From IMG/VR virus record IMGVR_UViG_2600255005_000005: DNA of 14,025 nucleotides; one strand, given 5' to 3'. A program made the position numbers and the translations under genes. The stretch comes from a virus. Taxonomy: Duplodnaviria > Heunggongvirae > Uroviricota > Caudoviricetes. This document shows positions 1-13,930 of the stretch, in pieces. Position 1 is the stretch's first letter; each line of letters starts with the position of its first letter. Under the pieces are notes generated by a model that ran no database searches, was not told where the DNA came from, and saw only the letters and a program-made list of their open reading frames with translations.

Positions 1-1479
1 ATGCTGGAAACCGCCTTTCAGGGCGTGAATGCGGTTATTGGCAGTATCAGCAATCTGTTCAGAGATGATGACGAACCGCCAGCGGCGGAGTATATCGCGG
101 AAGGCGCTCGGGATGTGCGTATCAACAGCCAGCCGGCGGCACGCAGCGGGGCACGCTGTACCTGTGAGGCCCGGGTGGTGAATGAGCCGGGGGACGGGGC
201 GTTTGTGTCACCGGATGTCCGCATTGGGGGGTCGTTACTGGTGGTCAGGGATATCAGAAGCGGCAGGTCGCAGATAACCCTGGTGGCAACCGTGGCGCTG
301 ATGTTTCTCCGCCCGGGCAAAATGCTTTCTAAAATCGCCTGTTTTGCTGCCGGTGTCGGGATGAGCATGATAACACAGAAGGCCATCAGCGCCCTTCCAC
401 ATCCGGTCAACGCCGCCACCGGAGCCAAATATCTGGCGGATGACGACGATTTCGACTTCAGCCTGCCGGGTCACTTTCCGCTGGACTGGCAGCGTGTGTA
501 CAGCAGTCGTGACGAGCGCACGGATGGGATGTTCGGTCAGGGCTGGAGTGTGATGTATGAAGTGAGCCTCGAGCGCACACCGGGTAACGCGGACGAAAAC
601 TGCATGACCTTTGTGTCGGGTATGGGGCGACGCCTGGATATGGAAGCCGTGCTGCCGGGGAGCGGGTTTTACAGTCCCGGTGAAGGACTGGCAGTACGGC
701 GTGGTGAGCAGGGGCACTGGCTTATCAGCAGCGATGATGGACAGTTTTTTCTGTTTGAAGCCGACCCGCATCACCCGCAGCGCCAGCGGCTGAAAATGCT
801 GGGCGACCGTAACAGCAACTGTCTGAATCTGTACCACGACGAGCTGGGGCGCATCACGCAAATCAGTGGTGAACAGCGGCGTCCGTGCATCCGTCTGCAT
901 TACGACCTGGCGGCGCATCCCCGTCGGGTGACGCAGATTTATCAGCATTTCCCTGATACTGCACCTTTACTGCTGCGTCGTTACAGTTATGACGCCGCCG
1001 GGCAGCTGACCGGCGTGTACGACAGTACCGGCCACCTGCTGCGCGAGTTTGCCTACAACGATAATCACTGCATGACCCTGCACCGCCAGCCGGGCGGCGA
1101 GGGATATTATTATCAGTGGGGCTGGTATGACGGTCCGGATGACGCAGCGTGGCGGGTGACGGGGCACCACACGGACAGCGGTGAACAGTACCGGCTGGCG
1201 TGGAACCTGGCGGCGCGCAGGCTGTGCGTGACGGACGGTCTGGGGCGCACGCGTTATCATCAGTGGGATGCGCAGAACCAGGTGACGGCGTACCGGGACG
1301 AGGCCGGGCAGGTGATGACGTTCCGCTGGAGCGACGAAGAACGGCTGCTGCTGGGGATGACCGATGCTCAGGGCGGCAGATGGCGCTATGTGTATGACCG
1401 TCAGGGGCATATCACGGAGACGCACGACCCCAGCCACACCAGTGCTATAGCGGGATATCCAGACTGCATGAGCAATTGA
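1..1479 (+). CDS. Rhs-family (YD-repeat) protein, N-terminal fragment with PAAR-like region and hydrophobic segment; truncated relative to full-length Rhs (~1400 aa); 5' end may lie outside the window
   Basis: GC-rich ORF running from the window edge. Contains the Rhs N-terminal signature (LPGHFPLDWQRVYSS...GMFGQGWSV, compare RhsA LPGPLPFILSRTYSS...GVFGPGW) and YD repeats (YDAAGQLTGVYDSTGHL, YVYDRQGHITETHDP). Upstream are a QPAAR motif and a hydrophobic stretch (ITLVATVALMFL...IACFAAGVGMSMI). The last ~13 codons look non-Rhs. Confidence 0.7.
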   Translation: MLETAFQGVNAVIGSISNLFRDDDEPPAAEYIAEGARDVRINSQPAARSGARCTCEARVVNEPGDGAFVSPDVRIGGSLLVVRDIRSGRSQITLVATVALMFLRPGKMLSKIACFAAGVGMSMITQKAISALPHPVNAATGAKYLADDDDFDFSLPGHFPLDWQRVYSSRDERTDGMFGQGWSVMYEVSLERTPGNADENCMTFVSGMGRRLDMEAVLPGSGFYSPGEGLAVRRGEQGHWLISSDDGQFFLFEADPHHPQRQRLKMLGDRNSNCLNLYHDELGRITQISGEQRRPCIRLHYDLAAHPRRVTQIYQHFPDTAPLLLRRYSYDAAGQLTGVYDSTGHLLREFAYNDNHCMTLHRQPGGEGYYYQWGWYDGPDDAAWRVTGHHTDSGEQYRLAWNLAARRLCVTDGLGRTRYHQWDAQNQVTAYRDEAGQVMTFRWSDEERLLLGMTDAQGGRWRYVYDRQGHITETHDPSHTSAIAGYPDCMSN

Positions 1480-1495
1480 TTCATCACGCAGCCGT

Positions 1496-2902
1496 TCATT
1501 CACGGTTTGCATCATTGATTTCCATCAGCATTACACTCTGATTTTTTAATTCATCGATCACTTCCTCTGGACGGGAATCCTGATCGATAAATTTCAACGC
1601 CTGCAACACCCGAACCGCATCAATCTGACGTATATCACCGCCCTGACGCAATGACTGAACAGCCAGCGCGGAGGATGAGTCAAACACCTGGGCAGATACA
1701 TCCAGTTCAGTGCGCACATCCACATTGCCACCGCAACTCTCTCCGCTCCATTCCGCCATTATCTGGAGAATATTATCGAGGGCATCTTCGAGGGAGTTCG
1801 CCATTGTATAAAGCGGCGAGTGTTCCTGCATCCGCTCTTCATTAGTCTGATCAACAGATTTGGTGGATGTATTTTCAGCCCGCAGAAGTTTAGCGCCGGC
1901 ATGACGCATCTGATTTTCCAGCTTCTCAAGTGATGTTTCGCCAGATTCTATCGCTGCGCCACTATGTTCAACATATTCGAGGCCATTTTTTGTTCTGTCC
2001 TCAAAAATCGTAGCGGTGGATGCACCAACCGTCAGTTCTTCATTCCTGTCCAGCCCGTAGGCCACCAGCAATGGAACGCGGGCAACATGAAGAATATTGT
2101 CCTGCTCGCTCTGGCTTTGCCAGTGCTTGATATTCAGCAAGCCAAGATTAAGCAATGGCGGTGTACCACGCATAAACCCTGTTTTCTTCGTATACAGTGT
2201 TACCAGAGGAATATCATCACGGCTGGTATTCCATGACTCATGAAGCATCCAGACAGATTCGCCATTAGTACCTTCGCTGCGTCGATAAATTTCTACTCGA
2301 CGGGGCATAATATGGCGGATCTGCTCCACCTTCTTCTGCCCGAAATCATCACCATCAATAATGATGACCTCTTTTATACGCAAATCAGTGAGAACAACTT
2401 TCCCTTTTTCAACTTTCGATTTCCATCCAATAACCTGGCGTGGATTCAGCATCGTAACGTACGGGCGACCACCGGCCGCGTTTTCATCGGCTTTTGTCCG
2501 AATCTCGTTCATATCCGTTCGTGGATAGTCCACCAGCGCATGTGCCACACCATACTGAAATGCGAGACTGAAAAATTGCTGCGCCCACACATCCAGTCGG
2601 CTCCCCTCCATGTCGATATTTTCTGCATATTCCCTGATTTTTTCCGGCGTTTCCTCACTCAATACTGTCGGCTCTGCAAATATTCGCCCAATATTTTGTT
2701 TGATGCTTTCTTCATACACAGGAAGTAGCGTAGCCACAGACAGGCGTTTTTTATAAGCGTCTTCATCTTCATTAGGCCATTTGGGGAGATAATTTTCCCC
2801 CTGCCTGCGCATTTCAAGCGTACCGCCCATCAGTGCGTCGTTAATATCCCACGCCTCCAGCATATCGTTATAGTCGAGGTTGGGTGTTGATATATCAGCC
2901 AT
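1496..2902 (-). CDS. putative phage portal protein (called by position immediately downstream of terL)
   Basis: 468-aa acidic protein. ATG at 2902 lies 2 nt after the terL stop (2905-2907). Gene order terS-terL-third gene is the canonical place for portal. No diagnostic motif recognised. Confidence 0.45.
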   Translation of the reverse strand: MADISTPNLDYNDMLEAWDINDALMGGTLEMRRQGENYLPKWPNEDEDAYKKRLSVATLLPVYEESIKQNIGRIFAEPTVLSEETPEKIREYAENIDMEGSRLDVWAQQFFSLAFQYGVAHALVDYPRTDMNEIRTKADENAAGGRPYVTMLNPRQVIGWKSKVEKGKVVLTDLRIKEVIIIDGDDFGQKKVEQIRHIMPRRVEIYRRSEGTNGESVWMLHESWNTSRDDIPLVTLYTKKTGFMRGTPPLLNLGLLNIKHWQSQSEQDNILHVARVPLLVAYGLDRNEELTVGASTATIFEDRTKNGLEYVEHSGAAIESGETSLEKLENQMRHAGAKLLRAENTSTKSVDQTNEERMQEHSPLYTMANSLEDALDNILQIMAEWSGESCGGNVDVRTELDVSAQVFDSSSALAVQSLRQGGDIRQIDAVRVLQALKFIDQDSRPEEVIDELKNQSVMLMEINDANRE

Positions 2903-2904
2903 AA

Positions 2905-4215
2905 TTAAATCCGAAGTGATGTGACTCTTCCGGTCGGTTTGACAATAGGGAATTGCTTAACGATGAAATAACCTCCGGCATCATTCGGGTGATCATTGCC
3001 AGATTTTTTATCAGGCTCCCCCTTATCATCCCAGACCTGTTGCTCCAGAGATTCGGCATATACCGGACAACGCTTCACATTAACTTTATAGCGACGCTCA
3101 CCATTGGCATTGCAGAACATTGCATTCATTGAGTTAACGCGATCTTTTACTGGCGGGTTCGAGCTGTTCACCACAACGTTAAAACCTGCCTGCTTAAGCT
3201 GGGCTATATCCGTCGTACTTGCGTTACTTGATTTTCTGGAATCTCCGGAAGCATCTGGATAAATATAAATCTCCCTCACTTTCCGGTAATCATGCCCGTC
3301 ATACGGCCAGAAGCGTTCTTTAATGATGCGGATCATATCCGGCGTATCGTAGGCATTGATGATTTCAGTTACCGCACATGGAAGCCCCAAACGCAGCACA
3401 TGGACGATTCCCGCCATCTTTCCAACGTTAAAATCCATCCCAATATAAATCGGCTCCCCTGGCTGCTCCACTTCTTCGCAATTATTCAGTTTCCGGTCAA
3501 ACTGATGGTAAACAGTACCACTTGTCAGGTTAGTAAACTGTCCTCGCAGATAGGCTTTAATCAGCTCTGGAGGGTATGATTCAAGAAGCGAAGGAATGTA
3601 ATCTGCTGGCAGGTTCTTTTCATTATCGAAAGTAGATGCCTGCACCAGACCATACAGTGAGGCCAGCTCTGTTTTTTCACGCACGGCTTTAACAAACTGC
3701 TCGTAGACAAATTTGAATCCTTCCGGCGTGGTTGTAACGTCAATACCGTTGCGAAGTCCATCAATCTTATAACGCATACGCGCAATTATCTTGCGCCACG
3801 CCGTTCTGGCTTTTTCCTTCGGCAAAATGTCCAGTTCATCCACCAACGCATTACCAATTTTGAAACCGACGATCGTTTGTGGCTTCTCCATCGATCTGCA
3901 GATAGTGGTTCCCCGATACTGGCGTCCGTAATAAAAGTGAACCTCTTTATTTCCCTCATTAATTTTTACGTTCAATCCCCAGTCAGCAGCAACTTCTTCC
4001 ACTGTAGGGTAAAAAATATCGCGAATTTGGGGATACGTTGGCGCAAAATATCCCTGATTTATACCTGGATGCTCCCAAATCCCCTTGCATATGCCGCCAC
4101 ACCCAACCCATGTTTTGCCCGAGCCAAAACCAGCAATATAGGCTTTAAATTTATGGGGCATTGAAAGAAATCGCGCCTGAGGCACATTAAGCGTCGGAGA
4201 GATCATCTTCATCAC
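2905..4215 (-). CDS. terminase large subunit (ATPase/nuclease)
   Basis: Walker A AGFGSGKT and Walker B-like LVDELD, with a C-terminal acidic nuclease-like region (IYIGMDFN, YIYPDASGD). Start is ambiguous among ATGs at 4215, 4212 and 4206; AAGGAG precedes them and favours 4212. Overlaps the terS 3' end. Confidence 0.85.
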   Translation of the reverse strand: MMKMISPTLNVPQARFLSMPHKFKAYIAGFGSGKTWVGCGGICKGIWEHPGINQGYFAPTYPQIRDIFYPTVEEVAADWGLNVKINEGNKEVHFYYGRQYRGTTICRSMEKPQTIVGFKIGNALVDELDILPKEKARTAWRKIIARMRYKIDGLRNGIDVTTTPEGFKFVYEQFVKAVREKTELASLYGLVQASTFDNEKNLPADYIPSLLESYPPELIKAYLRGQFTNLTSGTVYHQFDRKLNNCEEVEQPGEPIYIGMDFNVGKMAGIVHVLRLGLPCAVTEIINAYDTPDMIRIIKERFWPYDGHDYRKVREIYIYPDASGDSRKSSNASTTDIAQLKQAGFNVVVNSSNPPVKDRVNSMNAMFCNANGERRYKVNVKRCPVYAESLEQQVWDDKGEPDKKSGNDHPNDAGGYFIVKQFPIVKPTGRVTSLRI

Positions 4216-5281
4216 TCCTTACTCTGGCATCAACCACATTAATATTGATCGCCACAGGCTGGGGATGTTCATTATCTTCCACCGTTTCGATCTCTTTGCG
4301 CAGCTTCTGGTTTTCCATTCTGCGCCGTTCAATTTCCAGTTCCTGTAGCCGCTTATCTGCACATAAAGCCCCGCCAGCAGAAAGCAAACGCAACAATTCA
4401 CGCCGGGCGGCAGCCTTATCCTCCAGCAGGATCTCAACGCCGAATTTTCCGAATTTTGCCCCTGCATATAATTGCCGCGCATCCCCATCAAGCAGAGTGG
4501 TATCAGCCATATAAAGCTGTCCCGTTCCCTCACCGCAGCACTTCGGGCAGTCCGGATTGGGTATGGCGTTATCAACAAAGCCGAGGCCTCCATATTCCGG
4601 TTCGGGTTTGCCATCTCTGGAAGCCTGCGCCGCTGCCTTGTCGAATTCTGCTATATCGCGCCACTGGTAGAGATGATTCTCGCCCCAGCAATAACGGCAG
4701 TTAACACGGCGAAATTGTGCAAGCTGATTGGGGTCGGCCAGGACAATGGCCATCAACTGACTCACTAGTAAATCCAGGTCTGCGGTATAGCGTTTCTGGT
4801 ACTGATTGCGGAAGTAGCTGATAGCGCGAAAAACCCTGGCATTTCTAAGCATACGACTGGCGTTGCTGTTAGCTGTCGCACCTTGCCCCTCATAACCGGC
4901 TAGTCGGTACGCCTCTGTCGGCTTTTTACCCTGAGCAACAAGCATCGCAAACTTAGCCTGCTGGTCAGAAATGCCGAATTCATCGGGACAGAACGAAAAT
5001 TCCTCCGCGTCGCCCTCATTCAGGCCCGCATCGAATACTGGCTTTTTTTCCTGAGATTTTTCGTTCCGCTTTTGTGCAGTCTGCGTAGATTTTTTCTGCG
5101 CACTTTTTTGCGCAGTTTTGCGCATTTCTGTCTGCGCATTTTTCGGAGTTTTTTTGATGTAACGACGGGCTGTTGCGTAATTCAGTCCCCTTGCTTCACA
5201 CCATGCCACCGGAGATATACCGGAGCGGGTGTATTCAGCAATATACTCCTGCTGCAACGCCCCCCAGTCCGGTCTGCTCAT
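4187..5281 (-). CDS. terminase small subunit-like DNA-binding protein (unusually long, 364 aa)
   Basis: N-terminal HTH-like region (GISPVAWCEARGLNYATARRYIKK), a Lys/Gln-rich low-complexity linker, a terminase-small-like segment (KKPTEAYRLAGYEGQGATANSNASRMLRNARV), a Cys cluster (CRYCW...CPKCCGEG) and a C-terminal coiled-coil-like tail. Sits immediately upstream of terL with overlap. Confidence 0.6.
   Translation of the reverse strand: MSRPDWGALQQEYIAEYTRSGISPVAWCEARGLNYATARRYIKKTPKNAQTEMRKTAQKSAQKKSTQTAQKRNEKSQEKKPVFDAGLNEGDAEEFSFCPDEFGISDQQAKFAMLVAQGKKPTEAYRLAGYEGQGATANSNASRMLRNARVFRAISYFRNQYQKRYTADLDLLVSQLMAIVLADPNQLAQFRRVNCRYCWGENHLYQWRDIAEFDKAAAQASRDGKPEPEYGGLGFVDNAIPNPDCPKCCGEGTGQLYMADTTLLDGDARQLYAGAKFGKFGVEILLEDKAAARRELLRLLSAGGALCADKRLQELEIERRRMENQKLRKEIETVEDNEHPQPVAININVVDARVRSDEDDLSDA
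5073..5138. repeat. phased array of palindromic hexamers TGCGCA (4 perfect plus TGTGCA and TGCGTA), each followed by a T-tract, at ~10-14 bp spacing inside terS
   Basis: Read directly: tgtgca(5073), tgcgta(5082), tgcgca(5097), tgcgca(5109), tgcgca(5119), tgcgca(5133). Confidence 0.6.
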
Positions 5282-5284
5282 CAG

Positions 5285-5536
5285 TTAGTCCTGATTTTTA
5301 TCCACCCTGAGTAGTTCGCGCAGAGCAAAGGCATCCCCTTTTCTGGCAAGCTTAAACAATGCCGCTCGTAACTCGGCTTCACCTTTCGCTCTGCCCTTAC
5401 GGATGGCCGCATAAAAATCTGTCATTGCTTCCCGATTTTCTTTCAGTCGGTTCAGATCAACATCCAGAACGTCAGCGATTTGTTGTGCAGTCATCCGGCA
5501 CGCTGCCAGAGACTCGACTTTCGAATACGGAATCAT
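5285..5536 (-). CDS. hypothetical small protein (83 aa), possible DNA-binding helper of packaging
   Basis: ATG at 5536 preceded by GGGGTGA. Stop lies 3 nt before the terS start. Basic, helical composition. Confidence 0.45.
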   Translation of the reverse strand: MIPYSKVESLAACRMTAQQIADVLDVDLNRLKENREAMTDFYAAIRKGRAKGEAELRAALFKLARKGDAFALRELLRVDKNQD

Positions 5537-6404
5537 TTGTCACCCCCATTGATATGCAGGGTGTCTTCTTCCTGTATTTTTCGTGAAGGATTTTTACTGC
5601 AGCGTTGTTCCAGGTGACCTGATGGTGAATGCGTTTATGGCTGGCACCCATCAGTGAAATTTTTACGCACGACGGCGCATACATGACGGAGTAAAAACTT
5701 TTAACGTAGGTTCCGGAATCCAGATACAGCTCGGTCATTCCGCCGCTGTTTTTCTGCGTCTGTTTCTGCCCTAACTGGACAGCACCGATCGTCATAAACA
5801 ATTCACCACAGCGACCGAGATTCGTGTACGTATTCACATCCTCGTTAATGCGCCCCATGAATGAGAACGGTCGATCAACCGAACAGATAAAGCTGTTCAT
5901 TGCCTTGCGTTTCACCCACGAAGCATGGCCGCCATTGTCACCAAGAAAATCCCCGCCCTGCGACATAGCGATGGAAAGAGCAGGTATTGATTCGTAGTAC
6001 GCCAGCATTTCAGAAAGGATCGCATCCAGTTTCCTTATCGGAAAATAGGCCTGGTCATAGTTGCGATCCACCCGAAACTGGAACTCGTGATAATCATCAT
6101 CGAGCTGAATGAAGTATTTACACCCGACCAGTTTTGCCAAGTCGAAACAGGCATTACGGGCGTAAAAAATTGAGCGGCGGTCACAGAAATTATCGGCTTC
6201 GTCAAAACGACTGGCGATATCGGCTTTGGAAAACACCAGCACCTGTTCACCAAATTCAGCCATGTACTGATGCCGTGTCTTATCTTCATCATCAACAACG
6301 ATAAAAATTTTCCCGGTATAGCCAGCACGACGCAACGTCCGGTAAGTCAGAACTTTGTCCGGTCGCCCGTGAGTCAGAATAAAGGCGCAAAAATCATCAC
6401 GCAT
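5472..6404 (-). CDS. hypothetical protein with GT-A-fold glycosyltransferase-like motifs (soluble, ~310 aa)
   Basis: Ordered motifs FILTHGRPD, IFIVVDDED and FIQLDDDYHEF (DxD), with no hydrophobic TM segment. Preferred start is the ATG at 6404 (MRDDF), which overlaps the ParB-like stop as ATGCGTGA and is preceded by GGAGGAGGA; the longest ORF would start at 6425. Confidence 0.5.
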   Translation of the reverse strand: MRDDFCAFILTHGRPDKVLTYRTLRRAGYTGKIFIVVDDEDKTRHQYMAEFGEQVLVFSKADIASRFDEADNFCDRRSIFYARNACFDLAKLVGCKYFIQLDDDYHEFQFRVDRNYDQAYFPIRKLDAILSEMLAYYESIPALSIAMSQGGDFLGDNGGHASWVKRKAMNSFICSVDRPFSFMGRINEDVNTYTNLGRCGELFMTIGAVQLGQKQTQKNSGGMTELYLDSGTYVKSFYSVMYAPSCVKISLMGASHKRIHHQVTWNNAAVKILHEKYRKKTPCISMGVTNDSVFESRVSGSVPDDCTTNR

Positions 6405-7188
6405 ATTCCTCCTCCTCACCACCATGCATGATCTCCACCATGCGCTGCGTCATCCGGACAAATCCATTTTCAATAGCCTGCTGATAATCAATGATCACCA
6501 GCGCCGACTCCTCGAAAAAACACTGAATTTCAGCGGGGGCGTGAGCGTAATAGTCCGCAATTCTGCTGAAATTAAACACCGTGTGACGTTCTGCCGCACA
6601 CAGGAGGAATTTCTCAATATCAGGCTCAAGGGAAGCCAAACGTATCCGGCTGATCAGCTCCTGCGTTTTCGTATCGTCGTACAGTTCACTGATATCCGGT
6701 TTACCGCCCGACGGCTCATAAACAGGCGTATCAATTTTCGTCGTATACGGCTCCTCCTCATTTCCTGTACCGGGCAAAACATCCGTCAACAGTTCATCAA
6801 TTTCTGTCGGGATGAAGCCTGTCAGGGAGACATCAAAATCAGCATTGATTAGGTCCGACAGCTCCATCCGCAACAGATCTTCATCCCAGCCAGCATTCAT
6901 CGGCAGGCGATTATCTGCCAGGCGGTACGCCTTTTTCTGCTCATCCGTCAGGCCAGACAGAACAATGACCGGAACAGAATCCATTTTGAGCATTTCAGCC
7001 GCCATAACACGACCGTGACCCGCAATAATTTCGCCCTTTTCGTCAATCAGCACCGGATTAGTCCAGCCGAATTGCTTAATACTTTCTACCAGTTGTGCCA
7101 CCTGCTCAGGGCTGTGCGTCCTGGCGTTGTGCGCATACGGTGACAATTCTTGTAATGGGCGATAGACTATCTTTAATTTCTCGCTCAT
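6397..7188 (-). CDS. ParB-like nuclease domain protein
   Basis: ParB/Srx N-terminal signature (NPVLIDEKGEIIAGHGRVMAA) followed by an acidic C-terminal half. ATG at 7188 with AAGGA just upstream. Confidence 0.75.
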   Translation of the reverse strand: MSEKLKIVYRPLQELSPYAHNARTHSPEQVAQLVESIKQFGWTNPVLIDEKGEIIAGHGRVMAAEMLKMDSVPVIVLSGLTDEQKKAYRLADNRLPMNAGWDEDLLRMELSDLINADFDVSLTGFIPTEIDELLTDVLPGTGNEEEPYTTKIDTPVYEPSGGKPDISELYDDTKTQELISRIRLASLEPDIEKFLLCAAERHTVFNFSRIADYYAHAPAEIQCFFEESALVIIDYQQAIENGFVRMTQRMVEIMHGGEEEEYA

Positions 7189-7202
7189 ACATCCTTGCTT
7201 TA

Positions 7203-7240
7203 TGAATAAAACGCACCCCAGCAGCCAGTGCTACTGGGGG
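7203..7240 (-). terminator. candidate intrinsic terminator downstream of trkG
   Basis: On the minus strand a ~10-bp stem hairpin (CCCCAGUAGC / GCUGCUGGGG, 4-nt loop) is followed by UGCGUUUUAUU. Confidence 0.4.
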
Positions 7241-7325
7241 CGGAGGTGTTGCTGGTAAAGTTAGGTATTGGATCAATGAGTGAGTCAACATAATATTAAA
7301 CTCACAATTATAAATCAGCCATATA

Positions 7326-8783
7326 TTAGGAGCGCCAAAAAAAACCTGAAAACAATATAATAACAGGATAAATTTCAAGGCGACCAAGAATCATAGCTAT
7401 GCACATTAAATATTTTGCAATGTCATTAAGCACTCCGAATGACGATGCAGTAGCCCCAAAACCTAATCCCATATTATTAATACATGCAGCCACTGTTGCA
7501 AATGATGTAAGAAAATCATATCCCATACCATTTAACACCAGTATAAAAAACACCGTGAAGAGAGTATAAAGAAAAAAGAAACTCCATACAGACCTCATTA
7601 CACGATCTGTAACTATCTTCCCTCCTACATTTACACTCAACAACGCTCTGGGATGAGAAAGCTGATTTATCTCGTGTTTGCTTTGTTTGAAAAGTATAAG
7701 AAATCGAAGTGACTTAATTCCACCACAAGTTGAACCTATACATCCCCCAAAGAAACTTGACAACAGCAAAAACACTATCGTGTGCGTGGGCCAGCTTGCA
7801 TAATCCTGCGTAGCTAAACCATTATCAGTGAGCATGGAGCTGGCAAGAAAAAACGAATGAATAAAACTTCCATGCAAGTCATACATACCTATATGCCAGA
7901 CCTGGAAAGAGGTAACAATGATCACCCCTAAGGCTATTAACAGAAAGAAACGAAGTTCAATATCTCTGATTAAAGGTTTTATCGTTTTCCTGCTAATAAC
8001 AATATACCAAAGAGTGAAGTTGAAAGCCGATAGCAGGGAAAAAGAACCAGCCACCAGCTCAACCAAATAGTTATTAAAATATCCGATACTCTCGCTATGA
8101 GTTGAGAAACCACCAAGCGAAACTGTGGAAATCCCGTGACAAATAGCATCAAACAAAGGCATTCCTGCAAGTCTATAACAGACAATACAAGCAATACCTA
8201 ATAAAGAATAAGTTATCCACAGTGTCCGTGACGTATCGGCCAGGCGGGGAGTGAGTTTGTCATCCTTAAATGGCCCCGGCATTTCTGACTGATAAAGCTT
8301 TGCACCACCAATACCCAATAATGGCAATACAGCAACCGCCAGAACAATAACTCCTAAACCACCTATAAAATTTAACTGTGACCGATAGTACAAATATGCC
8401 CGAGGTAATGAACTAACATCATCAATTACAGTTGCTCCTGTTGTTGTTATTCCAGAAACCCCTTCAAACAGAGCATCAATGAACGTTAAATTAAGTTCTG
8501 AGTCAATCCATAAAGGGAATGCACTAATAACAGAAAACAAAATCCAAAACATTACAATTATAATAAACCCATCACGGGTACGTAATTGAATGCCAGATTT
8601 CTTAGTTGTATACCACGCTCCGCCACCAATGCAAAAAAATATAACGAAAGTTATAAAGAAAACGAATAGGCTTTTTTCTTTATAAAACAATGCTACAACC
8701 ATTGGTGGCAACATTGAAAGACTATAGAGCCAAACCAGGAACCCACACATATGAGTAACAACTCTTACATGAGATGTATTCAT
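7326..8783 (-). CDS. trkG: TrkG-type potassium uptake protein (Trk/Ktr/HKT family membrane transporter), prophage moron
   Basis: Multi-pass membrane protein whose sequence matches what I recall of E. coli Rac-prophage TrkG (MNTSHVRVVTHMCGFLVWLYSLSMLPP...), with repeated pore-loop glycine motifs. Strongly AT-rich relative to its flanks. First ATG at 8783; an in-frame TTG at 8801 has AAGGTGG 6 nt upstream and is an alternative start. Confidence 0.9.
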   Translation of the reverse strand: MNTSHVRVVTHMCGFLVWLYSLSMLPPMVVALFYKEKSLFVFFITFVIFFCIGGGAWYTTKKSGIQLRTRDGFIIIVMFWILFSVISAFPLWIDSELNLTFIDALFEGVSGITTTGATVIDDVSSLPRAYLYYRSQLNFIGGLGVIVLAVAVLPLLGIGGAKLYQSEMPGPFKDDKLTPRLADTSRTLWITYSLLGIACIVCYRLAGMPLFDAICHGISTVSLGGFSTHSESIGYFNNYLVELVAGSFSLLSAFNFTLWYIVISRKTIKPLIRDIELRFFLLIALGVIIVTSFQVWHIGMYDLHGSFIHSFFLASSMLTDNGLATQDYASWPTHTIVFLLLSSFFGGCIGSTCGGIKSLRFLILFKQSKHEINQLSHPRALLSVNVGGKIVTDRVMRSVWSFFFLYTLFTVFFILVLNGMGYDFLTSFATVAACINNMGLGFGATASSFGVLNDIAKYLMCIAMILGRLEIYPVIILFSGFFWRS

Positions 8784-8920
8784 ATCTAAATATTCTTTCA
8801 ATTATAACCACCTTGCTGCAATATTATGATTATACTGTATAAAATTTAACTCCTCTTAGATCTTACTTCACTGTTCCTTATGAAACAATCATCAAAATGA
8901 ATCATATTGTAGTTAAGATT

Positions 8921-9385
8921 TTACTTTAAACACTGTTCGGTTATGTATTGCTGAGCACCTTCAAGTTGGGCCTGCATCATTACCAGTCGTTCCCGGAGGG
9001 TGAAATAATCCCGTTCAGCGGTGTCTGCCAGTCGGGGGGAGGCTGCATTATCCACGCCGGAGGCGGTGGTGGCTTCACGCACTGACTGACAGACTGCTTT
9101 GATGTGCAACCGACGACGACCAGCGGCAACATCATCACGCAGAGCATCATTTTCAGCTTTCGCATCAGCTAACTCCTTCGTGTATTTTGCATCGAGCGCA
9201 GCAACATCACGCTGACGCATCTGCATGTCAGTAATTGCCGCGTTCGCCAGCTTCAGTTCTCTGGCATTTTTGTCGCGCTGCTCTTTGTAGGCGGTGGCGT
9301 TATCACGGTAATGATTAACAGCCCATGACAGGCAGACGATGATGCAGATAACCAGAGCATAAATAATCGCGGCGACTCTGCTCAC
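8921..9385 (-). CDS. Rz-type i-spanin (lambda Rz-like)
   Basis: Near-identical over most of its length to lambda Rz as I recall it ([21 protein letters not shown]...[33 protein letters not shown]...). GTG start at 9385 overlaps the lysozyme TGA stop (GTGA); the longest ORF begins at a TTG at 9400. Confidence 0.85.
8980..9165 (-). CDS. Rz1-type o-spanin lipoprotein, embedded in the +1 frame of Rz
   Basis: Signal peptide plus lipobox (LPLVVVGC) and a proline-rich mature part ([24 protein letters not shown]), matching lambda Rz1. Lies entirely within Rz. Confidence 0.85.
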
Positions 9386-9921
9386 TGATCTATCCCCCAA
9401 CAGGCTAATGCGCTTTCCTGGTCACGACGAATAACCTGTCCATAGCAGTTATTTGAACGTATGCGGCAATCGCGCCCACCATCTTTTATCCACCAGCGAA
9501 TCGCCTCGCATGCACCCTTACGATCACCGGCATTCAGCCGCTTATAAAACGTCGACGGGAAACACTTACCGGGGCCAATGTTATAGGGACAAAATGACGC
9601 TATACCCGCTTTCTGTGGTTCGGTCAGTGGTACTTTAATATTGCGCTCCACCCATGCCAGCGCCTTATCACGTTCAATAGCGTTAACCTGGTCGCATTTT
9701 TCCTTCGACAGCCTCATTCCCGGTATGACGGGCTTACCATCCACCATTGTGGCACCACGACAGATGGTCCATATACCGGAACCATCGCGGTATGCCGTTG
9801 TGTGGTTACCTTCTTTTTCATCCAGAAACTGGTCGAGAATATCAGGCGCAGGCGCAGGCGCACCGACGGCAATCAGTGCCAGAACGGCAGCCGACAGGCC
9901 GTATCTGATTTTTGCGTTCAT
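9382..9921 (-). CDS. phage lysozyme (GH24-like), probably SAR-type endolysin, resembling Qin RrrQ/YdfQ
   Basis: Catalytic E-x8-D-x5-T arrangement ([18 protein letters not shown]). N-terminal weakly hydrophobic Ala/Gly-rich segment ([20 protein letters not shown]) fits a signal-arrest-release domain. Partnered with an S21-type pinholin. Confidence 0.85.
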
Positions 9922-9981
9922 GGATATTTATCAGGATTTATCGGTTTCTGAACCCTGGATATGTTTATCTGTCCCGGCCTG

Positions 9982-10012
9982 TTGAATCAGGCAAGGAATA
10001 GTTAAATACAAT
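9982..10012 (+). promoter_or_regulatory. candidate sigma70 promoter for the plus-strand 90-aa gene
   Basis: TTGAAT (9982-9987) and TACAAT (10007-10012) with a long 19-bp spacer, followed by SD AGAGAGGA and the ATG at 10027. Confidence 0.25.
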
Positions 10013-10026
10013 AGAGAGGATTGTTT

Positions 10027-10299
10027 ATGGACAATAGCACCATTTCTCTACAGGAGTTGCTCGACTGCATTTCCAAGCTTCGGGATGATGTAAATGCCCT
10101 TACTGTCGCATTTTCATATCTGGCATTCTCAATTCCCAAGGAACAAATGCAACCAACACTGGCATCGCTCCAGCTTGAATCACTCAACCCCAAATGGTCC
10201 CAGCAACAACAAAATTCTTTCAAGTGGCTGGCGGTATTACTGGAAGAAAAATATGCTGGTGAAATTACCATTTCGGCGGAGTCTTCAGTGAACCAGTAA
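10027..10299 (+). CDS. hypothetical protein (90 aa), antisense-oriented gene inserted inside the lysis cassette
   Basis: ATG at 10027 with SD AGAGAGGA 7 nt upstream; helical E/K/L-rich composition. Its 3' end overlaps the 3' end of the convergent 114-aa gene by 35 nt. The ORF track's 10021 start is a TTG. Confidence 0.5.
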   Translation: MDNSTISLQELLDCISKLRDDVNALTVAFSYLAFSIPKEQMQPTLASLQLESLNPKWSQQQQNSFKWLAVLLEEKYAGEITISAESSVNQ

Positions 10300-10609
10300 T
10301 TCTTCCCGGCAGTTTTCCTTTGTAGGTTATCCACACACCCTGCGCCTCTAAAATTATGGGGCGCTTTTCCGGTGACTGCTCATCCCCTTCACATAACCCT
10401 GCAGCAACATCCAGGAAGACCTGTCTGATGCTCCTTCTGGCTGCTGCCTCATAAAACTCCAGCGCGGCACCTTCAACACGGTCCAGCGAGATGTCCAGGT
10501 CTAAAATTTCACCGTCAAAGCGTTTTTTGTCCCGTAACGCTAAAGTTACCGTAACTTTATTCTCAAAATTGCGGATCCCTTTCACAATCAGTTCATAGTT
10601 TTGAGTCAT
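10265..10609 (-). CDS. hypothetical lysis-cassette protein (114 aa), in the position of Qin ydfR between holin and lysozyme
   Basis: ATG at 10609 lies 4 nt after the holin stop, with GGGGAGAG upstream, so it is translationally coupled to the holin. Soluble, charged protein. Confidence 0.6.
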   Translation of the reverse strand: MTQNYELIVKGIRNFENKVTVTLALRDKKRFDGEILDLDISLDRVEGAALEFYEAAARRSIRQVFLDVAAGLCEGDEQSPEKRPIILEAQGVWITYKGKLPGRITGSLKTPPKW

Positions 10610-10613
10610 TGAA

Positions 10614-10829
10614 TTACTCTCCCCGTGCAGCCTTACGCTTATCTTCTTTAATCTTGAAATAAAGATTTGTCAGATACGTCAACAGGCCAAACACCAGACT
10701 ACCCAGCACACCTATTGCTGCCCACTGTGAGGGCGTGACTCTATCGAGCAACTGTAAAAACCAGTAGCCAGCACTGCCTGCGGAGGTGCCATAGGCGACA
10801 CCTGTTGTTAACTTATCCATGGATTTCAT
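10614..10829 (-). CDS. class II holin (phage 21 S / EssQ-EssD type pinholin) with dual-start motif
   Basis: [71 protein letters not shown] closely matches S21 as I recall it: two TM segments, a Met1-Lys-Ser-Met4 dual start and a charged C-terminus. The upstream in-frame extension to 10922 is rejected. Confidence 0.85.
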
Positions 10830-11168
10830 AACCCCCACCTCGCAGATGCGGGCGCTGTGTAATGGAAACAAAAAATGGCCACCAGCGGCCCGTAAAAAAC
10901 ACCCCGTCAAAAGCACCGGCATCCGCAGATGCCCTTTGCGTGGCGTTATTTGATGCGCGCCAGGTGTGGCGCAAAGAAATGAAATAAGACTTATCGAAAA
11001 TTAAGGTTAATTTGATGATTTAAACCACTTCTGAAGCTTAGTAGTATGAACATGTCCCCAGAAGGGGCCAATACTTATTATTCTTCATGGACTTTGTCCC
11101 GCGGTCTTAATCCGACGACCGCGCTACTTTTCACCCTCTCGCAAATTGCTATCTAAAGGACGTTGTCC

Positions 11169-11201
11169 CACGAGTATTCCTGTATGCTCGTGTCTTTTTT
11201 T
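11169..11201 (+). terminator. candidate plus-strand intrinsic terminator
   Basis: CACGAG...CTCGTG stem with a long 12-nt loop, followed by TCTTTTTTTTG. Confidence 0.3.
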
Positions 11202-11212
11202 GTCCTGAGAAA

Positions 11213-11243
11213 GGAATAAAAAAAACCGCCAGATATGGCGGTT
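11213..11243 (-). terminator. strong minus-strand intrinsic terminator
   Basis: On the minus strand AACCGCCA-UAUC-UGGCGGUU (8-bp stem, 4-nt loop) followed by UUUUUUUUAUU. Confidence 0.55.
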
Positions 11244-11605
11244 GGTCAATGCAAGGGATGAATTTTTTAATTGTTATTAAACCGAGGCGTCGGGTGCCTC
11301 CCGAAGTATTCCGTGCTGCATGGATACTGTGGTTTCCCGCTAAACCGACTCTTTAAACCACCCTCGCACTGAGGAGCGCCTCTGTGGTGCTTTTACAACA
11401 CCAAAATGATGCATCACCGACCCTGCCAGGAAATACAAAATCTCCACCGATAATGCACCATTCTGCTGCCGTAAAAAATTAGCACTGAGGCTACACCCGG
11501 CCTCAAATCATAGCCAGAGAACAGAATGCTTTTTCAAAACAACCTGCTCCCACGTAATAAAAAAATACGCCAGTGCCGTAATACAATAAGGCTTGTTTTA
11601 AATGC

Positions 11606-11680
<75 letters not shown>

Positions 11681-11683
11681 ATA

Positions 11684-11759
<76 letters not shown>

Positions 11760-11777
11760 ATTGGTTCTTCAGGGGAG

Positions 11778-11803
11778 CGATATCACCGAGCGATATCACC
11801 GAG
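11778..11803. repeat. perfect tandem direct repeat, 2 x 13 bp (CGATATCACCGAG)
   Basis: Read directly; lies 18 nt upstream (transcript sense) of the tRNA-Thr 5' end. Confidence 0.6.
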
Positions 11804-12004
11804 CAAAGAAGAGTTCCCCCTCAGAACCGTTTTCGATGATACGATTTAATATTCCAATCGCAACAACACTTTGCGTCAAGCTATGTAAATTTATTTATGT
11901 ATTTTTATTTTATGTGAACATTTCACCTTCACTTAAAATATACGCGACAATATATAAACAAATTTATTTTGAAGGCAATATTAAATGTCGTTTCTTATAT
12001 CACA

Positions 12005-12040
12005 CCATAATAACAACAAAACCCGCTTGATGGCGGGTTC
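12005..12040 (-). terminator. candidate tR'-like intrinsic terminator downstream of the Q-like gene
   Basis: On the minus strand AACCCGC-CAUCAA-GCGGGUU followed by UUGUUGUUAUUAU, about 85-120 nt downstream of the Q-like stop. Confidence 0.45.
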
Positions 12041-12091
12041 TATTAAAGTTTAATTGCGCTTGATTCGCCTCGCGATACAGCTTTGCGAAGC

Positions 12092-12128
12092 GTAGCAAAA
12101 TTGAAGCAGTTTACGCGTAAAAAATCAA
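12092..12128 (-). promoter_or_regulatory. candidate late promoter (PR'-like) at the 3' end of the Q-like gene
   Basis: On the minus strand TTGATT, a 17-nt spacer, then TTCAAT. Weak hexamers; the call leans on the position between Q and the terminator. Confidence 0.2.
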
Positions 12129-12667
12129 GCCGTTTTTTGAGCGAATGATTCTCGCATGGGAATGTATAGCGCATACTCAGCAACGGCCAACCAATTAGCA
12201 ATTCGCTTTTCGCATGTGCTAAAACACCACTCTGGGTGTGCATCATTTAGCAATTCAGCCATTTTGCGTTTGGTCATCCCCCGCCCCTCATACCGTTGCC
12301 GAAGGACGCTAATCAATCCTGGATGCTCTGCCAGCACCTCACTTATGACCCGATCAATACATAACGCCTCTGCATCAGTACAATGCGCCAGCCAGCTCTT
12401 TTGCTTGCCGTTGATCATCTCTCTCAAAAACGCTTCCAGCTCAGCTTTCTCTATTCCCGCTTTTTTCATTCTGCGCAGGGCTTCATTGATGGCTGTTTTC
12501 GTCAATTTTTTGGATGCCAACAACTGATTGAACATATTTCCTGACCTGCCACCGCCAATATACGACCAGCGCCCCCACATACGCAGTTTGCCCTGAATCC
12601 AGACACTTTCCAGCGTGGCGAGACGAAGGTGTTCTCCGCTTTTTCCTGTATTCGTTGGGTAAATCAC
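12125..12667 (-). CDS. putative late antiterminator Q-like protein
   Basis: Last gene of the nin-like cluster, immediately upstream of the terminator/tRNA/lysis region. GTG start at 12667 overlaps the upstream TGA (GTGA) and has AAGGAGGG 7 nt upstream. Contains an N-terminal W-G-x-W motif and Cys residues. The longest ORF to 12787 would overlap the upstream gene by 124 nt. Confidence 0.5.
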   Translation of the reverse strand: MIYPTNTGKSGEHLRLATLESVWIQGKLRMWGRWSYIGGGRSGNMFNQLLASKKLTKTAINEALRRMKKAGIEKAELEAFLREMINGKQKSWLAHCTDAEALCIDRVISEVLAEHPGLISVLRQRYEGRGMTKRKMAELLNDAHPEWCFSTCEKRIANWLAVAEYALYIPMRESFAQKTA

Positions 12668-12954
12668 AAATATCCCTCCTTTCTCCAGATTTCTTGTGTG
12701 CGAAAAACACCTTCTGCATGCATCAGGCGTAATTCTTCTTTGGTGTAATCGCTGGTTTTTACCCGCCCGTCGATTAGATCGTGGCATGAGCTACAGGCAA
12801 TCGCCGCCTGCATATCGTGTGGTTTTGTCGCTATTCCGCACGTTCCCGCCAGTCGGTAATGCGCCAGCACAGACGTTTCCGGATCGTGATTGCAGTAGCC
12901 AGGAATTCTGACGGTGCACATCTGCCCCCGCGCCGCTTTACGTAAATCCACCAT
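12664..12954 (-). CDS. DUF1364-family protein (YbcO-like putative nuclease of lambdoid nin regions)
   Basis: 96 aa, MVDLRKAARGQMCTVRIPGYCNHDPETSVLAHYR...IACSSCHDLIDGR, with the conserved Cys pattern I recall for DLP12 YbcO. Its ATG overlaps the upstream stop (TAATG). Confidence 0.7.
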   Translation of the reverse strand: MVDLRKAARGQMCTVRIPGYCNHDPETSVLAHYRLAGTCGIATKPHDMQAAIACSSCHDLIDGRVKTSDYTKEELRLMHAEGVFRTQEIWRKEGYL

Positions 12955-13553
12955 TACGCAAACTCCAGCAGCTGCGCGGCCACATTTTCGACTTGTTCCG
13001 GAGAGGAAAATTTACGGAACAGAATCCAGTTCCACAGCACATTCAGAACAGATTTATAAACCTGCTGAAACTCGGTTTCGTCCATATTCGCAAAAGCGAT
13101 GGATTTCGCCCGACGCCCATGGCTACCGTCCGGATAAAAATGTTCGGTGTAAAATCCAGCCTGAATGGTTACCCACTCGCGAAAAGCCTCAAACGACTTT
13201 AGCAATGCCGTATCCCGAGTTCTGCGTGTCGCAACTGTATTCAGATATTGCTCTGCGGCATCACTCAGGGCTGGCGTGTGTTCCCGACCAACTGATTCGC
13301 ACAGGTAATCAACGAAACCAGACAGCAGTTCTCGTTCGCGAGGCGTGATCGCCCCACCGACCGGAGTCCAGTAATCGAATCCCAGTTGCAGGAGTTTGAA
13401 AAAACGCTTGTGGAATGCGTAGTTACGCACACGCTTAAAGTCTGCGTGTATCCACTCACCTATTTTGATTTGATGCAGAAAATCGCAACTCTCCGGCGTC
13501 GCCGGGAGAAGTAAACCAGAAGAGGTTTGTTTGACCAGTTGTATATGCGCCAT
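12954..13553 (-). CDS. lambdoid nin-region protein of unknown function (possibly DUF1367-like)
   Basis: 199-aa ORF with ATG at 13553, translationally coupled to the downstream DUF1364 gene. Family assignment is from memory of the sequence style (KRVRNYAFHKRFFKLLQLGF...) and is tentative. Confidence 0.6.
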   Translation of the reverse strand: MAHIQLVKQTSSGLLLPATPESCDFLHQIKIGEWIHADFKRVRNYAFHKRFFKLLQLGFDYWTPVGGAITPRERELLSGFVDYLCESVGREHTPALSDAAEQYLNTVATRRTRDTALLKSFEAFREWVTIQAGFYTEHFYPDGSHGRRAKSIAFANMDETEFQQVYKSVLNVLWNWILFRKFSSPEQVENVAAQLLEFA

Positions 13554-13828
13554 TTCTCAATCTCTCGATGGCGCAGTGCAGCAGATGCCAGTTGTTCAGG
13601 CTGACGTATAAAGTATAAATAAACTGGTTCCAGTGTAAAGCCCCCACATTGATGGAATAAAAATCAAACAATAGATTGCTGGGATAAAAATACAACGCTT
13701 ATTATTAAAAGCGGTTAGACAAATTAAATTTTAATGTTATGCAAATCTGCCAGATTAGCATAATATCTCATTTGAAAACCGCTGAAATAACAATCTTATC
13801 AGGATTAATCATATTAAGGTGAGTAAAT

Positions 13829-13915
13829 ATGGAAAACAACAAATCTGCACATTACGCTCCTTTTTTATCTATAATACTTTTTGTATTTTGTTGTGTATGG
13901 GCGGTATTTTTATAA
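13829..13915 (+). CDS. candidate small hydrophobic peptide (28 aa, MENNKSAHYAPFLSIILFVFCCVWAVFL)
   Basis: SD AGGTGA 5 nt upstream of the ATG. Polar N-terminus followed by one hydrophobic helix-length segment. TAA stop lies 15 nt before a perfect 14-bp inverted repeat. Below the ORF track's length cutoff. Confidence 0.3.
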   Translation: MENNKSAHYAPFLSIILFVFCCVWAVFL

Positions 13916-13930
13916 AACACACCCACAAAT

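Follow-up and report, generated by a model that had tools for sequence, protein, structure and literature searches.

ORF90 is a 90-codon open reading frame (ORF) that runs backward through the lysis cassette of a lambdoid prophage. It lies at 10027–10299 on the plus strand of the virus sequence IMGVR_UViG_2600255005_000005, a stretch of 14,025 nucleotides (nt) to which we refer throughout as the window. We find it likely that ORF90 belongs to the reverse morons, as an accessory unit that encodes a protein and has a weak promoter of its own and a leaky terminator. The window itself is an E. coli prophage, lambdoid and Rac-like, with positions 1431–13917 matching strain Yu5 at 99.7% identity, and the E. 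coli B strains BL21 and REL606 are 100% identical to it over the 851 bp surrounding the ORF90 locus.

On this explanation, ORF90 would be a self-contained accessory gene that entered an S21-type lambdoid prophage and lies backward in its late lysis operon, where it separates the YdfR-family gene from the endolysin gene. Its transcription would start near 9972, driven by a weak sigma-70 promoter of the gene's own, for which TTTATC-17-TATGTT is the most likely candidate, and the predicted mRNA would carry a 5′ hairpin and a GAGGA ribosome-binding site, and end at a hairpin at 10343–10371. By analogy with other morons, ORF90 may be expressed from the silent prophage, with its product, a small acidic cytoplasmic helical protein, acting in the lysogen, for example in phage–phage or phage–host conflict, rather than in lysis. 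If late transcription is disturbed at all, that would be a side effect of the orientation of the gene. An original prediction, made from the letters of the window, had described ORF90 as an antisense gene that could act as a lysis-timing brake or as a lysogen-expressed factor; its coordinates are all correct, including those of the holin, the coupled 114-amino-acid (aa) gene and the 90-aa plus-strand ORF.

ORF90 and its relatives

Comparative evidence shows ORF90 to be a genuine protein-coding gene, one of a small family under purifying selection. The PHROG 2411 profile matches it over its full length (positions 1–90 of 90, E = 4.3e-59), and the exact protein sequence belongs to a 370-member UniRef cluster named Ybl58. 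Profile searches had been proposed for both the 90-aa and the 114-aa protein, and when run they assign the first to PHROG 2411 and the second to DUF1327/YdfR. Of 5426 complete E. coli genomes, 1221 carry the DNA segment 9966–10272, and a RefSeq coding sequence (CDS) is annotated beneath each of the sampled matches whose coverage is 77% or more. Across 40 distinct DNA variants, which go down to 89% identity, 36 have an intact reading frame of exactly 273 nt; the other four carry nonsense alleles, each of them a singleton. Among the 63 clusters found by a protein search of Escherichia and Shigella, full-length forms are exactly 90 aa long down to 76% identity. The ratio of nonsynonymous to synonymous polymorphism (pN/pS) of ORF90 is 0.33 within the E. 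coli variants, and changes that are synonymous in both the ORF90 frame and the minus-strand frame overlapping it are in excess (25 observed versus 14 expected).

A profile search of 1.8 billion representative proteins extends the family to relatives of 81–97 aa at 26–55% identity, which have in common the motif ELLDxIsxLRxxVNxLxxAFSYLAFS...LxFES. Conservation is uneven along the protein, with the C-terminal third of ORF90 far less conserved than residues 1–47. Chromosomal orthologues in Serratia, which are free of an overlapping gene, have a pN/pS of 0.16, with pS reaching up to 0.8.

The AlphaFold2 model of ORF90 consists of three helices (residues 8–34, 38–52 and 59–77) with a mean predicted local distance difference test score (pLDDT) of 78.6. 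The protein is acidic (isoelectric point 4.4) and has no long hydrophobic segment. A weak profile similarity links the family to the Srb-like proteins of phage HK022 (PHROG 6806): hhalign aligns the central-helix DVNALTVAFSYLAFSIP of the ORF90 family with EVTALKLAFGLLFARLP of the HK022 Srb-like proteins, at a probability of 17.8% and E = 1.4e-3 over 36 columns, while hmmsearch against HK022 Srb alone gives E = 2.4e-4.

Members of the family are found in a range of settings outside the lysis cassette. One relative (P0217) lies backward between tail genes M and L, another (P0215), also backward, adjoins small late genes and a terminase gene, and a third (P0222) stands alone in a 6.4-Mb chromosome. 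In P0224 and six Serratia species, an orthologue is located between dinI and bssS. A 75%-identical copy in E. coli F11 (L199 2517–2789) is the sole intact gene of a decayed lysis-cassette fragment, in which the 5′ end of the lysozyme gene is recognisable but destroyed; the fragment lies beside iha, a siderophore receptor/adhesin gene, in what is a pathogenicity-island remnant, and the iha-linked copy occurs in 60 complete genomes whose copies are mutually at least 99% identical. A 55%-identical E. coli copy (L198 2513–2782) adjoins an autotransporter gene on the IncF plasmid pD217IncF. Judged by these gene neighbourhoods, the family consists of stand-alone units in many unrelated contexts, and the ORF90 protein is therefore independent of the lysis genes. 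In addition, a phage isolate, Chlobot, has the arrangement in full at 96% identity, and the insert is therefore compatible with productive lysis.

As a separate observation on the Serratia loci, the orthologue there directly follows the dinI terminator (L191–L196 2968–3249; L186 4001–4279), and the purifying selection on it is strong.

The insert at the ydfR–endolysin junction

The features of the cassette, all positions being those of the window, are as follows.

10614–10829, minus strand: holin, class II (phage 21 S-type), PF04971 match
10265–10609, minus strand: YdfR-family (DUF1327) gene, 114 aa, beginning 4 nt past the holin stop
10027–10299, plus strand: ORF90, 90-aa CDS with an ATG start; RefSeq WP_000370546.1, hypothetical protein
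10002–10334, minus strand: alternative 110-aa ORF, rejected as a by-product of third codon positions common with ORF90
9966–10273, plus strand: putative moron insert, 308 bp, absent from phage H-19B, which has 15 nt instead
9382–9921, minus strand: lysozyme (endolysin) with a hydrophobic N-terminus, 179 aa (177 aa in BL21), PF00959 match
8921–9400, minus strand: Rz spanin, PF03245 match
8980–9165, minus strand: Rz1 ORF embedded in Rz, an ORF call

The class II holin, the lysozyme-family endolysin and Rz with its embedded Rz1 make this a phage 21-type lysis cassette; the signal-anchor-release (SAR) character of the lysozyme N-terminus was judged by reading the sequence only. A gap of 343 bp separates the YdfR gene from the lysozyme gene, and it is here that ORF90 sits on the opposite strand. 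A TTG at 10021 provides an alternative start that would give 92 aa. At its other end ORF90 converges on the YdfR gene with the 35-bp overlap (10265–10299) that had been claimed.

Comparison with related phages shows that ORF90 lies on a low-GC insert, which related cassettes lack or appear to have partly deleted. The two genes flanking it are adjacent elsewhere, as expected for a moron: in Qin they overlap, in mEp460 they are 55 nt apart, and in H-19B 15 nt take the place of 9966–10273. Likewise, base composition is unlike that of the neighbours, at 42.5% GC for the insert versus 52% in the lysozyme and Rz genes. The earlier description of the 90-aa gene as an insert is thus borne out against Qin, mEp460 and H-19B. 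Its premise that holin and endolysin are close together in Qin is half right, since Qin has ydfR between them, translationally coupled to rrrQ. The contents of the junction in the window's relatives are listed here.

K-12 Qin: 103-aa ydfR with its stop overlapping the rrrQ start; 92 bp of Qin are replaced by window 9932–10403
mEp460: gap of 55 nt from ydfR to lysozyme
H-19B and Stx1 phages: 15 nt replacing 9966–10273
YdfR-long allele (176 aa): an unrelated backward 86-aa ORF, PHROG 2572 (L173 2979–3239)
Stx2 phage 86: backward orf6, 104 aa, PHROG 1853 (L204 956–1270)
Loci L233 and L275: backward 98-aa ORF, PHROG 25324, following the promoter-leader module described below at L233 2812–2878

At least four unrelated cargo ORFs therefore occupy this junction, all of them backward: ORF90, the 86-aa ORF, phage 86 orf6 and the 98-aa ORF. 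The ydfR–endolysin junction is an insertion hotspot for backward cargo ORFs. Neither of two candidate homologues of ORF90 among them held up, and they are positional analogues only: for the 86-aa ORF, BLASTP found nothing and hhalign gave a probability of 0.3%, and for phage 86 orf6, BLASTP again found nothing and hmmsearch was not significant. In H-19B (L203 827–900) and the Stx1 phages, the module's promoter and the opening ~15 nt of a canonical leader (TCAGGCCAGCGGTGG) run straight into the final ~20 nt of ORF90 (GAGTCTTCAGAGAACCAGTAA). This sequence reads as a deletion scar, and the "empty" junction of these phages would therefore be derived from an occupied one.

The YdfR/DUF1327 proteins upstream of the junction are themselves modular, with a conserved N-terminal core of ~69 aa (residues 1–69) and allele-specific tails, giving total lengths of 103, 114–116, 176–183 or 268 aa; examples lie at 10265–10609 of the window and at L204 1280–2086. 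The first 72 residues of Qin YdfR have been reported in a 2026 paper to bind RNase E's catalytic domain (PMC13232886), and the core common to the alleles coincides with the residues so reported as a binder of the catalytic half (PMC13232886).

Several further observations concern the surroundings of the cassette. In the lysozyme gene, a GCAGGC hexanucleotide repeat at 9843–9862 has one unit more than in BL21, which adds Ala-Pro (GAPAPAPD versus GAPAPD) right after the hydrophobic N-terminal segment. Directly downstream of Rz is trkG (7326–8801, minus strand), a potassium transporter gene and known Rac prophage cargo, followed by a ynaK pseudogene and then packaging genes. Two tRNA genes (11609–11759, minus strand), which are tRNA-Gly and tRNA-Thr in the RefSeq annotation of Yu5, separate the holin from the DUF1133/DUF1364/DUF1367 genes upstream of it. 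The prophage with the long YdfR has an STnc100 small RNA (Rfam RF02076, 132 bits), together with a tRNA, in the interval from antiterminator gene to holin (L173 974–1163, plus strand).

Expression signals and the promoter-leader module

Gene order implies that ORF90 would need a promoter of its own, since upstream of it, over more than 2.6 kb, all neighbouring genes lie on the opposite strand. The candidate signals on the plus strand are the following.

9920–9935: box ATGGATATTTATCAGG, which lines up with the module's CTG-N9-CAG box; overlaps the lysozyme start codon and initiation region, which are on the other strand
9937–9942: −35-like TTTATC, with a 17-nt spacer to TATGTT; invariant in 40/40 variants
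9960–9965: −10-like TATGTT, aligning with TAnnnT of the module; invariant in 40/40 variants, predicted start near 9972
9977–9992: hairpin GCCTG-TTGAAT-CAGGC at the predicted mRNA 5′ end, its loop being the "−35" of the original prediction
9982–9987 and 10007–10012: TTGAAT and TACAAT with a 19-nt spacer, the promoter of the original prediction; weak, 9/12 matches
10014–10020: Shine-Dalgarno GAGAGGA, its GAGGA core kept in 40/40 variants
10343–10371: terminator-like hairpin GCGCCTC/GGGGCGC, −13 kcal/mol, then TTTTCC; 44 nt past the ORF90 stop

The TTGAAT and TACAAT hexamers that had been put forward as the promoter do exist, and a relaxed scan with spacers of 15–19 nt returns them as the sole candidate in 9600–10030. 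As a functional choice they are unlikely. Their spacer is 19 nt, and a standard promoter scan with 16–18-nt spacers left the pair uncalled, with fewer sites in the region than in shuffles; the −10 TACAAT is GACAAT (first T to G) in 15 of the 40 sequence variants; and transcripts begun near 10019 would lack part of the ribosome-binding site of ORF90. That site, GAGAGGA, is the strong Shine-Dalgarno of the original prediction and lies 6 nt ahead of the ATG, and the start codon is conserved in all 40 variants. TTTATC-17-TATGTT (9937–9965) is the more likely ORF90 promoter, as the homology described below suggests.

A standard scan did not call a terminator at the hairpin at 10343–10365. The decayed iha-linked copy of ORF90 retains this hairpin with a perfect stem, though its surroundings have diverged. 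Rfam has no family across the ORF90 locus. A LexA box upstream of ORF90 was considered and rejected: the conserved box there is CTG-N9-CAG, not CTG-N10-CAG.

The upstream regions of distant, phage-borne ORF90 relatives have a common sequence, from which we identified a promoter-leader module. Viral contigs contain GGGATGGCTGATTA as an exact match 121 times, 88 of them in the same context of ~130 nt. Read in the orientation of the cargo ORF, the module comprises a CTG-N9-CAG box, a TTGCTT-like −35, a TAnnnT hexamer, the sequence UCAGCC, a hairpin, and a second stem around GAUGGCUGAUUA, which forms an invariant loop. The box is found in 53 of 65 module copies; TAnnnT, most commonly as TATGTT, is found in 64 of 65 and always lies 6 nt before the conserved UCAGCC. 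A WATCAR-N4-TTR motif resembling an integration host factor (IHF) site is present in 33 of the 65, and in the window it is imperfect.

Base-pair covariation argues for a structured RNA. Compensatory changes occur at three pairs of the hairpin (in 12, 8 and 13 sequences), and the covariation score of 0.195, compared with 0.127 in column shuffles, was not reached in any of 500 shuffles, a control that ignores relatedness among the module sequences. When the 3′ partners are slid, pairing falls from 94% to 27–49%. The structure is placed on the cargo strand because G-U pairs are frequent. UCAGCC is complementary to GGCUGA in the loop GAUGGCUGAUUA, so that a pseudoknot is possible; this helix cannot show covariation, since the sequences had been gathered by means of its two motifs. 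A covariance model (R1), built from 56 module copies, was scored on sequences outside the model. Module positions and scores are as follows.

HK022 module, NC_002166.1 13978–14107 (L326 1501–1630): gp23 leader, 87 bits
P0215 (L178) leader: 64 bits
HK97 module, NC_002167.1 15027–15112 (L325 1501–1626): gp23 leader, 50 bits
Phage 86 orf6 leader: 37 bits
86-aa ORF leader (L173): E = 0.3, weak
Further module copies: loci L181–L322

The module precedes gp23 of both HK022 and HK97, genes that GenBank describes as "srb protein; moron gene product" and "reverse moron product", respectively. In enterobacterial phage contigs it is found ahead of more than 60 unrelated small ORFs. Its cargos comprise at least 66 different proteins, mostly of 65–100 aa, including many PHROGs of unknown function and one group with DUF1883. 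Among the 57 copies with both flanks resolved, 46 run antisense to the long ORF on either side. No Rfam family covers the module, a literature search had no match to its sequence, and in RefSeq E. coli genomes no feature is annotated beneath it among the matches listed. With the original HK97/HK022 paper outside the comparison, the promoter-leader module may itself be new.

Window positions 9920–9965 are homologous to the promoter part of the module, the closest copies being those of lysis cassettes (L233, L204 and L215). The window thus has the backward cargo and the promoter part of a reverse-moron module. In place of the structured RNA leader it has the short hairpin at 9977–9992 and only about 50% similarity.

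Alternative explanations and known systems

A number of points weigh against reading ORF90 as a reverse moron. As regards coding, the tblastn query that gathered the IMG/VR loci was the plus-strand protein, a choice that selects for intact copies; ORF90 also occurs in truncated form and in frameshifted variants of 94 aa; and within E. coli, pN/pS does not separate the plus frame (0.33) from the minus frame (0.30). As regards expression, both candidate promoters match the consensus weakly, and 9922–9965 is also the leader of the endolysin gene itself, found in cassettes that have no backward gene, so the invariance of this stretch is not independent evidence for a promoter. The putative terminator is weak, with only four U residues, and lies inside the coding region of the ydfR tail, where it encodes the conserved EKRPIILEAQ. 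The covariance model has no match in the window at E ≤ 10, and only the promoter-proximal part is demonstrably homologous. As regards function, fold searches with the ORF90 model return generic helical matches only, and ORF90 has no Pfam, NCBIfam or PADLOC family. Finally, a literature search gave no transcript, 5′-end, ribosome-profiling or proteomic evidence for ORF90.

Of the other explanations, one holds that ORF90 is one cargo of a family of mobile reverse-moron cassettes with a conserved promoter in common, in which the module leader, possibly pseudoknotted, is a regulated platform for dozens of fast-evolving small proteins that are transcribed against late operons, and that at the ydfR–endolysin junction the transcript in addition tunes the endolysin or excludes related superinfecting phages. 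We regard this combination as rather doubtful.

Another is the lysis-timing brake of the original prediction, in which collision of transcription, pairing of the ORF90 and late mRNAs, or both would lower or delay expression of endolysin and spanins. A transcript from ~9972 to ~10371 could indeed pair with the final ~107 nt of the ydfR message and with almost all of the spacer between ydfR and the endolysin gene, and the presence of at least four unrelated backward cargos suggests that the position is favoured. However, the same units of module plus cargo lie backward at other late-operon sites (tail M/L and I/J), so that the orientation is general to the cassettes. Since such backward cassettes occur throughout late operons, the brake model loses its main appeal. 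Late transcription in lambdoid phages is antiterminated by Q and strong, whereas the candidate ORF90 promoters are weak, and the predicted transcript does not reach the start region of the endolysin gene (9922–9940). Moreover, relatives of ORF90 function outside phages, and phage Chlobot is viable with the insert. Nothing ties ORF90 to lysis timing; the same family is present, backward, in tail operons, a pathogenicity-island remnant, an IncF plasmid and Serratia chromosomes. We consider the brake unlikely. The companion label of a lysogen-expressed factor fits with the moron class, by analogy with its other members.

Alternatively, the RNA could be what matters, acting in the lysogen as an antisense to the late mRNA of related superinfecting phages and so excluding them in the manner of STnc6030, with the ORF secondary. 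The predicted transcript would be complementary to ydfR-tail and spacer sequences that are widely common, and there is a precedent in a lysogen-expressed RNA that is antisense to late structural genes and excludes phage of its own type (PMC7067206). Against this, conservation at the protein level reaches relatives of 26–55% identity in contexts that have no antisense target, and the start codon and GAGGA core are kept in 40/40 variants. We think it very unlikely that exclusion by RNA is the primary role.

The last alternative is that there is no plus-strand gene, ORF90 being a chance ORF or annotation artefact and the truly coding sequence being the minus-strand ORF 10002–10334 or a longer YdfR. 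The minus ORF does have nearly the same pN/pS as ORF90, but pN/pS is uninformative as a chooser of strand, because third codon positions are common to the two frames, and changes synonymous in only one of the frames are balanced (5 versus 4). We used the distribution of stop codons instead. Stops in the minus frame, at codon 14 or 28, are fixed across whole clades, whereas those in the plus frame are at the tips only. The minus ORF has no PHROG, Pfam or NCBIfam match, and distant relatives of ORF90 occur where the overlapping gene is absent. The original prediction would have given way to conservation of the minus ORF; ORF90 turns out to be the conserved coding frame. Longer YdfR proteins of 176–183 aa exist, but their tail is encoded by other DNA, which replaces 9966–10272 and has no similarity to either strand of the window, and ORF90 is accordingly neither an antisense shadow of that tail nor, as BLASTP found no match, an inverted copy of it. 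The spurious-ORF reading is essentially excluded.

We thus favour the reverse moron, and a generic one. Because the family has further backward members within tail operons, next to iha, on a plasmid and also in the interval from dinI to bssS, ORF90 would be a unit of the same kind as gp23 of HK97 and HK022 and not a lysis-specific part. Filing it in this class points to a small lysogen-expressed protein in phage–phage or phage–host conflict, rather than to a component of lysis, and roughly one in five complete E. coli genomes carries it, those of BL21, REL606 and CFT073 among them. The module, with its base-pair covariation and its presence ahead of more than 60 small ORFs, gp23 of HK97 and HK022 included, could serve as a handle for finding accessory genes that have remained hidden and that may be co-regulated; the ydfR–endolysin junction would be one insertion hotspot for accessory genes of the module type. 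Reverse morons are known already as annotations in HK97 and HK022, as are accessory loci antisense to lytic genes (PMC7067206). A literature search gave no description of the WP_000370546/Ybl58 family or of its position inside a lysis cassette.

Among known systems, the closest cassette is essQ-ydfR-rrrQ-rzpQ/rzoQ of K-12 Qin, which has the same holin type, YdfR core (residues 1–69) and lysozyme at 88–90% DNA identity. It differs in its 103-aa YdfR, whose stop overlaps the rrrQ start, and in being without the antisense gene. The moron concept is said to go back to Juhala, Hendrix and colleagues in 2000, and bor and lom of phage lambda are lysogen-expressed morons of the late region. The lambda bor gene adjoins the lysis genes on the opposite strand, has its own promoter, is expressed from the prophage and encodes a lipoprotein. 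Like ORF90, it is an accessory gene near lysis genes and opposite to them; unlike ORF90, it lies downstream of Rz and not inside the cassette. ORF90 lacks both a signal peptide and a lipobox, and its sequence does not resemble that of the Bor lipoprotein.

In Salmonella, STMMW_20121 of ST64B and STnc6030 of BTP1 are units antisense to prophage lytic genes that have their own promoters in lysogens and are read as accessory loci (PMC7067206), and STnc6030 shows that an antisense transcript can act on late mRNA (PMC7067206). Neither has any sequence relationship with ORF90, and both have measured transcripts, STnc6030 also a phenotype, whereas ORF90 is known here from its sequence.

The nearest parallel is gp23 of HK97 and HK022, likewise a small ORF (73–86 aa) that is opposite to the late operon and lies between genes adjacent in relatives, in this case tail genes I and J. 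The gp23 genes are in a tail operon and ORF90 is in a lysis cassette; they have a structured RNA leader, of which the window has no recognisable copy; and the weak profile similarity between the HK022 Srb-like proteins and the ORF90 family covers the central helix, with homology unproven. What the two systems do have in common at the DNA level is the putative promoter region, that ahead of gp23 in HK97 and HK022 being homologous to window 9920–9965.

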